Source: Methylobacter sp. (GTDB lineage Bacteria > Pseudomonadota > Gammaproteobacteria > Methylococcales > Methylomonadaceae). From it: a DNA stretch of 64,000 nucleotides. The stretch is taken from assembly GCA_030653175.1 (NCBI GenBank), contig JAURZV010000047.1, positions 8,819-72,818 of the forward strand. The letters run 5' to 3'. Shown here one piece after another: positions 174 to 60,896 of this stretch (its first letter is position 1; every line of letters starts with the position of its first letter). The notes beneath the pieces were generated by a model. It saw nothing but the letters and a program-made list of their open reading frames with translations. It was not told where the DNA came from and did not search any database. Position numbers and translations under genes: made by a program.

Positions 174-238
174 TGACAGCCATAAAGCAGAAAGCCAGTA
201 CAGCAATGCTGTACTGGCTTTCTGCTTTATGGCTGTCA
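174..238. repeat. 65-bp perfect palindrome (31-bp arms, 3-nt loop AAT) downstream of rpmE
   Basis: TGACAGCCATAAAGCAGAAAGCCAGTACAGC (174-204) is the exact reverse complement of 208-238. Confidence 0.9.
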
Positions 239-5990: not shown

Positions 5991-6007
5991 TACGAGAACA
6001 AGATAGG

Positions 6008-6081
6008 ATGGGTAGAGGCTGCAGCCGAAACCCATCAAAACCAATACCTATGAGATGGGTTTCGCTACGTTCTACCCATTC
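6008..6081. repeat. Pair of REP-like hairpins GATGGGT-N-ACCCAT(C/T) between convergent genes
   Basis: 6008-6037 reads GATGGGTAGAGGCTGCAGCCGAAACCCATC and 6055-6081 reads GATGGGTTTCGCTACGTTCTACCCATT. The loops are roughly reverse complements of each other. Confidence 0.7.
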
Positions 6082-6091
6082 TACCGAGCTA

Positions 6092-6984
6092 TCAATCCAG
6101 TTGCTTCAATGTTTTGTAGGTTAATCCTTGATTAGTTGCCTTGATTATTTCAAATCGTGCGCCACGATACCCGACAATATTGCTCTCCGAGAGATTATAC
6201 TTTAAATCCTGAGAAAAGGCGGGGCGAGCCATATCCTCATTAAATTCTCTGTAAAAAATGGAAATCACCTTCTGAGAGACTCCGGTATATACCAGTTCTT
6301 TCTTAAAGCTGAGGTCGTCTCGCTTATGGTGGAATGATTTCGTAAACGGAATGCCGTTCTTTACATATGAGAATGGCTGCTGTAAATTGTCTAAGAGGTA
6401 AATCTCTGTTTTTGTTGGGTCTAAATTAGTAACGTATATCCCGCCCTCGATATCCTTCGGCTTGCTATCTTCTAGAATATTACCTTTTTTCCCTTCATAA
6501 AACGTCCCAACGGCATCTTTTCCCTTTTCGACGTATCTGCCAGAAAGTAGCGTGAGCTTAAATTTCTGGCCAAGATTATCTGCCTGATGCTCGATTGTTT
6601 GTTCGATGTCTATCGCCGGGATAGTTGCCTGTTTGTCTTTCCAAACAAGACTTTCCCCAACCTCGACTGTCTTAATCTCACCAATGGCCGGGTAGTCTGA
6701 AATAGATGATGAGTAGTAAGATGGCGTGTAGGTGCGTCCTAGGAGGCTGTCGGATTTAAAAAACACAGCCACATAACATATTGATTTTAAAATAAATTAA
6801 TTTTTATTGCTTTTCGTTATAAAAAATAATTTCAATATATTTCAATGGCTTAATATTTTTAGTGAGGCATAATCCGACAGCCTCCTAGGTGTTCGCTCTC
6901 GATGCGGCCCGAGGTTCTACATCCTTGTACGGACATGATCACAAGAATGGAAGTGGTAAGAAGTGCTGCATGTCTCAGTTTCAT
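6092..6984 (-). pseudogene. Lipoprotein gene of unknown function, interrupted by MITE-like element E1
   Basis: The upstream fragment 6984->6859 encodes MKLRHAALLTTSILVIMSVQGC (lipobox) RTSGRIESEHLGGCRIMPH*. The downstream ORF 6772->6092 starts at a GTG inside the insert. Deleting 146 bp (or 152 bp) joins the two fragments in frame. Confidence 0.75.
6740..6887. mobile_element. MITE-like element E1: 144 bp with perfect 15-bp TIRs, TA/TA flanks, inserted in a CCTAGG site inside a CDS
   Basis: GGAGGCTGTCGGATT at 6742-6756 is the exact reverse complement of 6871-6885. TA lies at 6740-6741 and 6886-6887. The AT-rich core (6757-6870) has no ORF. Confidence 0.7.
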
Positions 6985-7180
6985 TGAGACTCCTTTAGTA
7001 ATGGTCGGCAACGATTTGCCTAACTATAAGTAGACACCTTTTTTAGGTGCATATTAAGTTTCAATCCAGGGCGCAAAAGCCACCCCAGAAACCCGTTAGT
7101 CATGATGCTACAATAATTATTTAATAGCAATCTTTCAGGCAAACCTAAATCGGAATCTCGCCCTAACAAATTCAACGCAT

Positions 7181-19384: not shown

Positions 19385-19840
19385 ACTACGAAGACACGAA
19401 GAAATATGACTTCTTGTCGATGTGGCGAATAAAAGAAAGCTACTCGCCAATACTTGTTCTCCTGTTTGGCGTCGCAAAATACGACGCTTGAAATCGTAAA
19501 GCAAATCTTGAACTCCAGTGTCTGTAAAACTTGGAGTTCAAGGCTTGCTTTGGACGCTCAATGCTGCAACGCCATAAATTCGTAATGTTTAATCAAGGCT
19601 ATGTCATCGTTAAGTATTGAAGACAACTCATACTGCATTAAGCTTAGGCAAATCAGCCATTGCAACAGGAGTGCAAGCTTTGCTTGTACTTGCAGGCGAA
19701 GCCCGCACTCCAGTAATCCAGTAGCTTCCACATTTAACGATGACATAGCCTTAATCAAAAATCCAAAGCAAGCTTTGGACTCCAAAAACCACACAATGCC
19801 TACTCTGCGTTTTTCTTCGTGTCTTCGTGGTGAATAAAAG
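19385..19840. mobile_element. About 450-bp nested foldback element with CGAAGACACGAAGAAA termini (CACGAAG family, copy A)
   Basis: The terminal IR is 19389-19404 versus 19812-19827. Inner IRs are TTAATCAAGGCTATGTCATCGTTAA (about 19590) with TTAACGATGACATAGCCTTAATCAA (about 19733), CTTGCTTTGGA with TCCAAAGCAAG, and a local hairpin CTTGAACTCCA..TGGAGTTCAAG. Confidence 0.65.
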
Positions 19841-41648: not shown

Positions 41649-41700
41649 ATAAACCACGAAGAAACATACGAATGCTTCCGTATGTTTCTTCGTGGTTTAT
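41649..41700. repeat. CACGAAG-family hairpin, copy B; likely exbD terminator
   Basis: ATAAACCACGAAGAAACATACG (41649-41670) is the perfect reverse complement of 41679-41700, 13 nt downstream of the exbD stop. Confidence 0.8.
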
Positions 41701-44591: not shown

Positions 44592-45968
44592 TTACGGCCT
44601 TCCGAATTGGTTACACAAAGTTATCAATACCAGTAGCAACAAAATGCCGATCAGCGACTGTCTTAATATGACCGTCCATACCGTGTCAGTCGTCGGCAAA
44701 GGTTTCATTACGGGCAGCTGCCCATAATCCGACGGCGACATGCCTTGCTTGCCCATGATTCCAGGGACAAAAAACGCCCGCCACCGGTCTTCAAATTGAT
44801 TGGCCGTTTGAATGTATTCGGCATAGCGGGGGGCATCGATACCCGCCAAACGGTCAGCCGTCAATACGGCGGCAAGTCCGGGCGAAAGAGCGGACCAACG
44901 TTCCATAAACTCAAAATGAGTCTTCCTGACTTCATCGAAGCGATACATCAGCGGCCGTACCTTGCTATCAAGCTCCAGGTTCGCGGGCAGACCGGCAACC
45001 TCGCGGGGCGGCTCTTTCAAGGACTTGATGTCAGGATGCGCCTGATACCAGGCTGACAGCAATTCGGCCTGCTGCTTAGAAGTTTGCGCCTGAACACGGC
45101 GAATATCGACAATTGCCTCAAGCCGGGAAGGCATGGATTGTATGCCGTTCGCCGCCCAGCTCAAACCCGCCGGTACCGCAAACGTCGTGACCAACCACAC
45201 GCCTAACAAGCCCACCGCCGCTGCACCCGACGAAACAGGCAACAACAAAAACAACCCTGAAATCGCAATCCACACCCCGGCAAACACGCCGGCAAAAACC
45301 AGCCAATGCGTTGCCGCGTAAAGGGTGGAACCGGAGTCCAGCATAAACGCAAGCAGCGATGCCGCGACGGCAGGCATCAGCACCATAACCAGACGCACGG
45401 CGAGCGCGGCAAATACCAACAGCCAGGGGCGGGGCATTTGCGCGCAAACCAAACGCCACACGCCCCGCTCCCGATCTTCCTGCACCAAGCCGTAAGTGAC
45501 GGCTATCACGGTCAACGGCAACAATAACGCGAGTATGCTTGCAAAATCGAGCAAGCCCAGTTCGCGCAGCAACGGATTGAACAACTGATCGCTGTTGCGG
45601 CCATCGGTATAGCGGCTGCGGGTTGATATGCGCAGTTCGGAACCGAGCAGATCCATTTGCCGCACGCTCAATGCCAAACCGCCGAGCGCCGGAAGACACG
45701 CGGTTGTACTATCAGCCGGCTTGGATGCGTAGTGGCCTTTGCCGATACCGGGTGCATCGTGCATTTCTGTGGGCGCGAATTTATTCGCGTCTATAGCAGC
45801 AGCGCGAATAAATTCGCGCCCACCAAATGCTTTGGCACGAAACTCACTGGCGGCAAGTCCCGACCATATCGCGCTAGCCGCCAACAGAGTAAAGAACGCG
45901 GCAATGACCCACAGATTGACCTGGTTGCGGATGAACCGCAGCCACTCGGCTTGCAACAAACTCATCAT
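44592..45968 (-). CDS. ABC-2-type permease with DUF3526-like domain (second of two)
   Basis: 458 aa with one N-terminal TM helix, a large extracytoplasmic loop, a cluster of TM helices and a C-terminal soluble part. Its start overlaps the upstream permease stop (ATGA). Confidence 0.6.
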   Translation of the reverse strand: MMSLLQAEWLRFIRNQVNLWVIAAFFTLLAASAIWSGLAASEFRAKAFGGREFIRAAAIDANKFAPTEMHDAPGIGKGHYASKPADSTTACLPALGGLALSVRQMDLLGSELRISTRSRYTDGRNSDQLFNPLLRELGLLDFASILALLLPLTVIAVTYGLVQEDRERGVWRLVCAQMPRPWLLVFAALAVRLVMVLMPAVAASLLAFMLDSGSTLYAATHWLVFAGVFAGVWIAISGLFLLLPVSSGAAAVGLLGVWLVTTFAVPAGLSWAANGIQSMPSRLEAIVDIRRVQAQTSKQQAELLSAWYQAHPDIKSLKEPPREVAGLPANLELDSKVRPLMYRFDEVRKTHFEFMERWSALSPGLAAVLTADRLAGIDAPRYAEYIQTANQFEDRWRAFFVPGIMGKQGMSPSDYGQLPVMKPLPTTDTVWTVILRQSLIGILLLLVLITLCNQFGRP

Positions 45969-48172: not shown

Positions 48173-48246
48173 AAAAAACACGGTCCACGAAAGACACGAA
48201 AAGCACGAAAAATCCCATAACACGATACTTTCCATTTTTTTCGTGT
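48173..48246. repeat. CACGAAG-family palindromic element, copy C
   Basis: GTCCACGAAAGACACGAAAA (48173-48192) is the perfect reverse complement of 48227-48246. It lies between the BNR gene stop and the ABC ATPase start. Confidence 0.85.
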
Positions 48247-48306
48247 CTTTCGTGGACAATTCTTTTGGTGGATTGGGCTGCATGTTGTTTAGCCCGTCCC
48301 ACGACC

Positions 48307-60841: not shown

Positions 60842-60896
60842 TCACCACGAAGACACGAAGGACACGAAAAAATAAAACTTCGTGTCTTCGTGGTGA
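60842..60896. repeat. CACGAAG-family palindromic element, copy D; likely hemW terminator
   Basis: TCACCACGAAGACACGAAG (60842-60860) is the perfect reverse complement of 60878-60896. A U-rich tract follows on the minus strand. Confidence 0.85.

Follow-up and report, generated by a model that had tools for sequence, protein, structure and literature searches.

We analyzed a 64,000-nucleotide stretch of DNA from Methylobacter sp. (hereafter the window), in which two minus-strand open reading frames (ORFs) each run into a 144-bp AT-rich segment. The first, of 41 codons, carries the start of a lipoprotein gene. It encodes the signal peptide MKLRHAALLTTSILVIMSVQGC with the lipobox SVQGC, followed by 12 further native residues, seven codons contributed by the segment, and a TAA stop. 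The second ORF (6772-6092, 226 codons) starts at a GTG inside the segment. A preliminary description of this DNA had reported the 41-codon signal-peptide fragment, the GTG ORF, and an AT-rich 144-bp segment with 15-bp terminal inverted repeats (TIRs) and TA on both sides, and all of these were present as described. The features of the locus are listed in Table 1.

Table 1. Features of the disrupted lipoprotein locus in the window
Feature	Position	Strand	Remarks
Accessory islet: lipoprotein gene and upstream region	6091..7153	.	missing from the cysI-DUF934-ctpA locus of the closest relative
Lipoprotein gene, 3' part, residues 34-248 of the restored protein	6092..6741	-	no signal peptide; homologue alignment
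Probable TA target-site duplication, left copy, inside CTAG	6740..6741	.	empty site in L004; off-consensus flanks elsewhere
MITE, non-coding, 144 bp	6742..6885	.	28% G+C overall; full-length imperfect hairpin
TIR, left arm, GGAGGCTGTCGGATT	6742..6756	+	perfect, 15 nt
IHF-consensus motif AATCAATATGTTA (WATCAANNNNTTR), exact	6774..6786	-	consensus match, 32 nt from terminus
Weak sigma-70-like candidate TTGAAA-18-TATAAC, toward the truncated ORF	6816..6845	-	relaxed scan, 10/12 matches
Mirror-image motif TTTCAATGGCTTA, one mismatch to the IHF consensus	6840..6852	+	33 nt from the other terminus
Lipoprotein gene, 5' fragment, 41 codons, ATG 6984 to TAA in the element	6859..6984	-	ORF list, homologue alignment
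TIR, right arm, reverse complement of GGAGGCTGTCGGATT	6871..6885	-	perfect, 15 nt
Probable TA target-site duplication, right copy, inside CTAG	6886..6887	.	empty site in L004; off-consensus flanks elsewhere
Shine-Dalgarno AAGGAG of the native ATG (6984)	6990..6995	-	sequence inspection

Deletion of positions 6742-6887 (146 bp) joined the two parts into one 248-codon ORF reading ...ESEHLGRTYTP..., with the insertion point at codons Leu33-Gly34. This in-frame restoration had been proposed from the nucleotide sequence, and protein homology searching bore it out: the restored protein matched 97 homologues, about 60 of which are 241-250 aa long and correspond to it end to end, covering 95-100%. The native stretch of the 5' fragment (6984-6888) aligned with the N-termini of the homologues. 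Across 20 aligned sequences, no gap interrupted the junction SEHLGRTYTPSYYSSSISDYP (SEHLGRTYTP), and it was identical in the five nearest sequences (P0002-P0006). The lipobox cysteine, Cys22, was invariant throughout the alignment, and the signal peptide is continuous with the mature domain in the restored ORF. Mechanical ORF calling yields two ORFs here, and the 226-aa product is a database protein (P0001), as would be expected if the segment were a conserved hairpin native to the space between two separate genes, one a small signal-peptide ORF and the other encoding the 226-aa protein. We give that arrangement practically no chance, since the roughly 60 single-protein homologues of 241-250 aa span both parts and the segment is missing from homologous loci while being present at unrelated ones. 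The two ORF calls at 6092-6984 can be annotated instead as one accessory lipoprotein gene, probably inactivated by a recent MITE insertion.

The DNA of the homologues was compared at the junction. The homologue L004 has an uninterrupted GAACACCTAGGACGCACC with a single CTAG at the insertion point, which is the predicted empty site verbatim, and the corresponding DNA in L001 and L002 reads GAACACTTAGGACGC. L004 is a non-syntenic homologue; it nevertheless supplies the uninterrupted ORF that the preliminary description had suggested looking for among orthologues. With this empty site, the seamless protein junction, and the copies at other loci described below, the original proposal that a MITE recently entered one lipoprotein gene is upheld. 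Of the 62 columns that are invariant among the 19 other sequences, the restored ORF matches 61 and departs from the rest in one residue alone (D215N); the insertion is therefore recent, with no decay of the gene since. Perfect TIRs and an intact duplication accompany these retained residues, and the insertion is evolutionarily recent on all three counts.

Many Methylobacter assemblies break at the ends of this IS/MITE family, and the contig behind the window was probably assembled from a metagenome; we therefore considered whether the structure is an assembly artefact, created by chimeric joining across a repeat or by collapse of a repeat in the metagenome. The two flanks come from one gene, and joining them restores the frame exactly at a single CTAG, with TA duplicated; a chimeric join would not reproduce this combination. 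The element is also complete and, at only 144 bp, fits inside single reads. An artefact is thus extremely unlikely.

Relatives of the lipoprotein were sought by sequence profile in Pfam, NCBIfam, and PDB, and none were found. Its AF2 model is all-beta and of mediocre quality (mean pLDDT 67), and a Foldseek search with this model gave no informative structural match. The closest syntenic relative, L127 (CysI 95% identical), aligned with the window up to 6090 and again from 7154 onward. It holds about 630 bp of unrelated sequence in place of 6091-7153, so that the whole lipoprotein gene is missing. An IS110 element occupies the corresponding locus in other relatives, and the neighborhoods of the lipoprotein homologues differ from each other. 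These observations indicate that the MITE struck an accessory gene in a variable spot of the genome. The CysI protein of the window is 93-96% identical to named Methylobacter proteins. The lipoprotein gene and DUF934 converge, and polar effects on downstream genes are therefore not expected.

The 114-nt interior of the inserted segment has a G+C content of 19%, compared with 47% in the window. With the flanks included, a perfect 19-nt inverted repeat, CCTAGGAGGCTGTCGGATT, occupies 6738-6756 and 6871-6889, its arms being 114 nt apart. Among 30 shuffled versions of the window, perfect inverted repeats (loops of up to 200 nt) reached 15 nt at most, and so the 19-nt repeat is not due to chance. 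No ORF lies wholly inside the element, and the ORFs that touch it are read-through from the host gene only. The 144 bp folded as a single full-length hairpin with a perfect basal stem of 19 bp (RNA, -61.4 kcal/mol, z = -9.2; DNA, z = -7.3). This hairpin is not followed by a U-tract and is therefore not an intrinsic terminator, and Rfam scans of the element and of one 162-nt relative returned sub-threshold noise only. A second copy or a diverged TIR (up to three mismatches) was not found in the 64-kb window, where the element is the sole copy; a full-length insertion sequence (IS) bounded by its termini was likewise absent from the window.

Related elements were found elsewhere. When one genome per species was scanned for the terminus TAGGAGGCTGTCGGATT, at least 110 stretches were obtained, concentrated in Methylobacter, Methylomarinum, and uncultured Gammaproteobacteria among the matches listed. 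Pairing of the termini gave at least 71 candidate elements among the matches listed: at least 38 of 162-163 bp, at least 8 of 141-150 bp, at least 7 of 1,559-1,560 bp, all of them in Methylobacter tundripaludum SV96, and at least 18 of various other lengths (one to three per length). Copies of 145-146 bp in two Methylobacter MAGs (L115; L105/L041) showed 74-75% identity to the window element over the full length, with conserved internal blocks. A metagenome scan with a subfamily-specific pattern revealed, in one metagenome, at least five distinct sites with near-identical 144-bp copies, each 88% identical to that of the window. It also picked up a truncated copy in L121, with 97% identity across 88-90 nt. 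The same subfamily is thus present at at least seven other sites (L115, L105/L041, L117, L119/L123, L120, L118, and L122) besides the partial L121 copy, and the search for further copies envisaged at the outset ended with relatives showing 74-88% full-length identity. The window element is a member of an AT-rich subfamily of about 145 bp that is specific to Methylobacter. It is a genuine MITE: small and non-coding, bounded by TIRs, duplicated at its target relative to an empty site, dispersed in copies, and matched by a partner IS. Literature searches by terminal sequence and for Methylobacter MITEs returned nothing relevant on the subfamily, its termini, or its host.

CCTAGG is palindromic, and the duplication at the lipoprotein site alone can therefore be read as TA, CTAG, or CCTAGG, all of which excise the identical 146 bp. 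The flanks of the other copies were more informative. Over 181 ends among the matches listed, position -5, which is occupied by the C of CTAG and lies outside the search pattern, was 86% conserved, and flank positions from -6 outward were random. Canonical cTA-GG...CC-TAg flanks were present in 39 of 69 paired copies among the matches listed. Off-consensus copies had aTA, tTA, or gTA on one side, or TAa on the other, with the GG/CC termini intact. Such flanks fit a TA duplication at a non-canonical xTAy target without mutation and need mutation under a 4-bp CTAG duplication, which favors TA. This choice rests on about eight off-consensus copies (roughly p = 0.04, our own estimate). Duplication of TA in a preferred CTAG target, as initially suggested, is thus the best reading of the flanks, and the 4-bp CTAG model is less likely.

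The long elements pointed to the probable mobilizing system. The 1,559-bp element of SV96 encodes one protein, a transposase of 452 aa (L058:4985-6343), which matched the NCBIfam equivalog NF033551 (IS1182 family transposase) with 354.5 bits against a cutoff of 270 and contains the Pfam domains DUF772, DDE_Tnp_1_6, and DDE_Tnp_1. The ends of this IS are GGAGACTGTCGGATT and GGAGGCTGTCGGATT, flanked by CTA...TAG. The TIR of the MITE is identical to its right inverted repeat (IRR) and matches the left one (IRL) at 14 of 15 positions. Long elements in L121 and in L048 (Rhodobacterales) also encode IS1182-type transposases. Two further long candidates, L024 (1,527 bp) and L099 (1,504 bp), were rejected, as they consist of housekeeping genes between unrelated ends. 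In Ca. M. oryzae and Methylobacter GFS_3396, single terminus matches located 80-130 nt from contig ends proved to be the IRR of the same IS, which indicates that the IS is multicopy there and breaks the assemblies. The hosts overlap, with the MITE in the Methylobacter window and the IS multicopy in M. tundripaludum, Ca. M. oryzae, and Methylobacter GFS_3396. In L121, a MITE resembling that of the window and the left end of this IS are separated by TA only.

Past the terminal 15-16 nt or so, no similarity between MITE and IS was detected, and the subterminal sequence of the IS is absent from the MITE. With only about 16 terminal nt in common, the MITE is a terminus-sharing passenger of the IS and not an internal-deletion derivative. 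Sharing of termini alone with an IS is common among MITEs and is no bar to mobilization. The proposed parentage draws on the termini, the common target, the host genus, and the physical adjacency; these point to the IS1182-family IS as the probable partner and, judging by the matches listed, a different autonomous element bounded by such termini is unlikely.

The preliminary description had assigned the element to IS630/Tc1-mariner. Under that assignment the MITE would derive from, and be mobilized by, an IS630-family transposase; TA duplication in CTAG is a classic IS630 signature, the flank statistics above favor TA in CTAG, and the IS630 member ISPsy32 targets CTAG (PMC8027508). The same paper describes an IS1182 member, ISPsy36, that targets the palindromic tetranucleotide GGCC (PMC8027508), and a palindromic tetranucleotide target therefore does not discriminate IS630 from IS1182. 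No IS630-type transposase was found between these termini among the matches listed, where every genuine long element (the seven in SV96, L121, and L048) is of the IS1182 type, and the IS1182 copies share both the CTA...TAG flanks and the host genus with the window. An IS630 origin is hence very unlikely and the original assignment does not hold: a cognate transposase, whose search had been advised, does exist, and it belongs to IS1182 instead of IS630. TA duplication within CTAG is thus not diagnostic of IS630.

The partner resembles other IS1182 systems in encoding a single DDE transposase of about 450 aa that matches the IS1182 equivalog, and the TIRs of about 15-16 nt and the MITE length of about 145-165 bp are also in the range of IS1182 elements and their MITEs. 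The short palindromic target, CTAG, parallels the GGCC of ISPsy36. In contrast to ISPse1 (PMC3281130) and the ISMac2 MITE (PMC3852290), which are tabulated with 4-bp direct repeats, the flanks here favor a 2-bp TA duplication. ISMac2-associated MITEs of 160 and 169 bp, derived from IS1182, have been reported in Methanosarcina acetivorans (PMC3852290), and this kind of element is therefore already known. The knockout of a gene by an IS1182-associated MITE is an ordinary event. The relation of this MITE to its IS1182 partner lies in the termini only, and it is not a simple internal-deletion derivative.

Likenesses to other families of small elements were also examined. Among IS630/Tc1-mariner-type MITEs, of which the cyanobacterial Nezha is an example, TA duplication in CTAG, a small TIR-bounded non-autonomous form, and the capacity to inactivate genes are shared with the window element, whereas its partner autonomous element is of the IS1182 family. 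Correia elements (CREE/NEMIS) of Neisseria are about 100-155 bp long, bounded by TIRs of 26 nt, and flanked by TA; they contain an internal IHF site, give long hairpin transcripts, occur in hundreds of copies per genome, and can affect neighboring genes on insertion. To our knowledge, they have no established autonomous partner. The present element is likewise a TIR-bounded, TA-flanked hairpin and carries IHF motifs, which here are consensus matches only; unlike Correia elements, it has TIRs of 15 nt and a weak outward promoter candidate, and there is no sequence similarity between the two. The ERIC/IRU sequences of enterobacteria are full-length imperfect palindromes of about 127-160 nt with compensatory changes in their arms and are often located just downstream of genes; we know of no transposase partner for ERIC. 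The 162-nt relatives of the window element are also full-length palindromes with compensatory arm changes, and they too are often situated directly behind genes. Their sequence is unrelated to ERIC/IRU, and in contrast to the latter the present elements have IS-type termini and TA flanks and occur in several phyla.

The consequences for the lipoprotein gene were assessed from its remaining signals. Translation from the native ATG would end after 41 codons at the TAA inside the element. The GTG at 6772 is not preceded by a Shine-Dalgarno sequence, the first in-frame Met after it lies a long way into the ORF, and a product restarted at this GTG would have no lipoprotein signal peptide. A strict promoter scan of the element found no site; the sigma-70-like candidate from the relaxed scan (Table 1) is missing the conserved T at position 6 of its -10 hexamer. 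The 215 native codons beyond the element would thus lack a signal peptide, a ribosome-binding site, and any convincing promoter, and on these grounds the disrupted gene is most likely a null allele. It had been proposed that the insertion either inactivates the gene or rewires it through the GTG restart within the element; inactivation is most likely, and rewiring is unlikely given a GTG with no Shine-Dalgarno, a product with no signal peptide, and a weak promoter candidate.

The insertion might instead be tolerated or regulatory, with expression through a promoter and GTG restart in the element, through ribosomal bypass between the doubled CUA-GGA codons at the foot of the hairpin, or after frequent, precise, and reversible excision between the 6-bp CCTAGG direct repeats. 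The disrupted ORF is undecayed (61 of 62 invariant residues), which a recent insertion explains equally well. The codons CTA GGA are in frame on both sides of the element; this is the automatic outcome when an element with GG...CC ends duplicates TA in CTAG, and it gives no evidence for bypass. The very stable hairpin, with its 19-bp perfect basal stem, would juxtapose both sites, yet the codon from which ribosomes would take off is not followed by a stop, and the documented bypass gaps known to us are of about 50 nt, against 146 nt here. The weak TTGAAA-18-TATAAC site could be viewed as an outward promoter, but it was not among the results of the strict scan, and restart at the GTG meets the difficulties given above. 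Taken together, a tolerated or regulatory insertion is quite unlikely.

We consider it very probable that a MITE with the termini of an IS1182-family IS, likely mobilized in trans, recently inserted at a CTAG in the lipoprotein gene, which is most likely null as a result. In the proposed sequence of events, the DDE transposase of the 1,559-bp IS1182-family IS most likely mobilized the MITE in trans, and the element entered at the TA of the CTAG within the Leu33-Gly34 codons, as the comparison with empty sites shows, probably with duplication of TA. The MITE family, absent from our literature search, is widespread in Methylobacter and other Methylococcales and can now be linked to an active IS1182-family IS. 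This MITE/IS family fragments Methylobacter assemblies and may produce strain-level gene knockouts in methanotroph populations.

The IHF motifs of the element were compared among subfamily copies. The exact consensus motif was present at the same distance from the terminus (32-33 nt) in 5/5 copies, with NNNN variable, and the mirror-image motif with one mismatch was also kept in 5/5 copies. An exact match occurred in 3.5% of shuffled element interiors. IHF may bind at these motifs.

The 162-163-bp relatives formed one homology cluster across very distant taxa. They fold as a hairpin of about 160 nt, and compensatory double changes are seen at 31 of its 53 pairs. In this hairpin, 92% of cells were paired, compared with 35-49% when the partners were slid, and 0/500 shuffles attained the values observed. 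The stem of the 162-nt branch is kept by compensatory changes in Gammaproteobacteria, Desulfuromonadales, Binatia, and Gemmatimonadales. The placement of the elements relative to genes was also recorded. In 21 of 66 elements, the TA and the terminal G of the element together make up the TAG with which an ORF of at least 100 codons ends; among CTAG sites that carry no element, this applies to 68 of 391 (Fisher p = 0.007).

A broader reading, which we regard as doubtful, is that the window element and the 162-nt relatives form a superfamily of IS1182-mobilized hairpin modules in which the whole stem, beyond the TIRs, is under selection. The compensatory changes of the 162-nt branch and the mirrored IHF-type motifs 32-33 nt from each end in the Methylobacter branch are compatible with it. 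If so, the folded DNA, single-stranded or cruciform during transposition, or a read-through RNA would be functional, and the hairpin may be a substrate for transposition or, in elements located on TAG stops, may stabilize 3' ends. The CTAGG sites joined by the hairpin could then also permit precise excision, which would make the lipoprotein knockout reversible. The cross-phylum 162-nt hairpin, with its strong covariation, could offer a system for understanding why some MITEs conserve their whole fold.

Only about 6 of 50 short copies appear to disrupt a gene.

The 15-nt termini and TA flanks of the window MITE were also present, among the matches listed, in an element of 162-163 bp, whose interior was conserved but differed from that of the window MITE. 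Besides the five loci named in the table (L-numbers denote genomic or metagenomic loci compared with the window), at least about 35 more were found among the matches listed, in very distant hosts comprising Gammaproteobacteria, Desulfuromonadales/Pelobacter, Binatia, and Gemmatimonadales. The 162-163-bp element folded into a hairpin of approximately 160 nt, in which 92% of cells were paired and compensatory double changes occurred in 31 of 53 pairs; the observed values were reached in none of 500 shuffles. Comparison with Rfam revealed no match for this element.

Among the matches listed, 66 termini-sharing elements in loci L007-L123 were examined. In 21 of them (32%; e.g., L009:7525, L034:5712, and L082:1619), the duplicated TA and the terminal G of the element supplied the TAG stop for an ORF that was 100 codons or longer; at unoccupied CTAG sites in these loci, the proportion was 17% (Fisher p = 0.007). 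When an element inserts on a C-TAG stop codon, the stop is regenerated, and such an insertion is therefore probably near-neutral. Six termini-sharing copies carried TGG instead of TAG at one flank and CTA at the opposite flank, and a minimal "element" at L055:2658-2696 consisted of two termini only ~6-9 nt apart.

Comparison with the IHF consensus indicated two motifs in the window MITE, arranged as mirror images and each located 32-33 nt from a terminus. Both were kept in all five copies of its subfamily (~145-bp Methylobacter MITEs), with variation in the NNNN positions. These predicted motifs recall the IHF site of the Neisseria Correia elements.

The lipoprotein gene split by the window MITE formed an accessory islet, with DUF934 on one side and a ctpA-like protease gene on the other. 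At this position, the closest syntenic relative (L127) had ~630 bp of unrelated, ORF-poor sequence instead, and in other relatives an IS110-family transposase followed DUF934. The linker after the lipobox differed in length between members of the lipoprotein family; compared with its five nearest homologues, the window lipoprotein had the extra residues GRIE, encoded by an in-frame insertion of 12 nt a short distance upstream of the MITE site. The stop codon of the lipoprotein gene was closely followed by REP-like nested palindromes, which lay inside sequence common to the window and L127. Among the other strong hairpins of the window, the three on CACGAAG/CTTCGTG motifs may represent a REP-type repeat family.

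Nested inverted repeats made up a second MITE-like structure elsewhere in the window. A 28-nt stretch of one arm (window 19726-19753) matched, at 100% identity, the sequence by which a window-like MITE copy in the metagenome contig L121 is truncated, and the structure probably represents another mobile repeat family common to these Methylobacter genomes.

Coordinates of the repeats, motifs, and islet
Feature	Location	Strand	Details
162-163-bp element, example copies	L019:6364-6526; L011:4795-4957; L036:3144-3305; L061:2667-2829; L031:5404-5564		
Copies with TGG flank	L009, L025, L031, L043, L078, L099		
IHF-consensus motif AATCAAnnnnTTA	window 6774-6786	-	exact match; consensus comparison
IHF-consensus motif TTTCAAnnnnTTA	window 6840-6852	+	one mismatch; consensus comparison
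Lipoprotein islet and compared loci	window 6091-7153; L127:6811-7444; L124:5999-6970		
GRIE insertion	window about 6898-6912	-	
REP-like nested palindromes	window 6004-6083		GATGGGTAGAGGCTG/CAGCCGAAACCCATC; CGAAACCCATC...GATGGGTTTCG
Perfect palindrome	window 174-238		32 nt, 1-nt loop
Perfect hairpin	window 45769-45823		21 nt
CACGAAG/CTTCGTG hairpins	window 41649-41700; 48174-48266; 60842-60896		
Second MITE-like structure	window 19531-19785		24-nt arms, 92% complementarity; 38-nt arms, 84%
Stretch matching second MITE-like structure	L121:60-87
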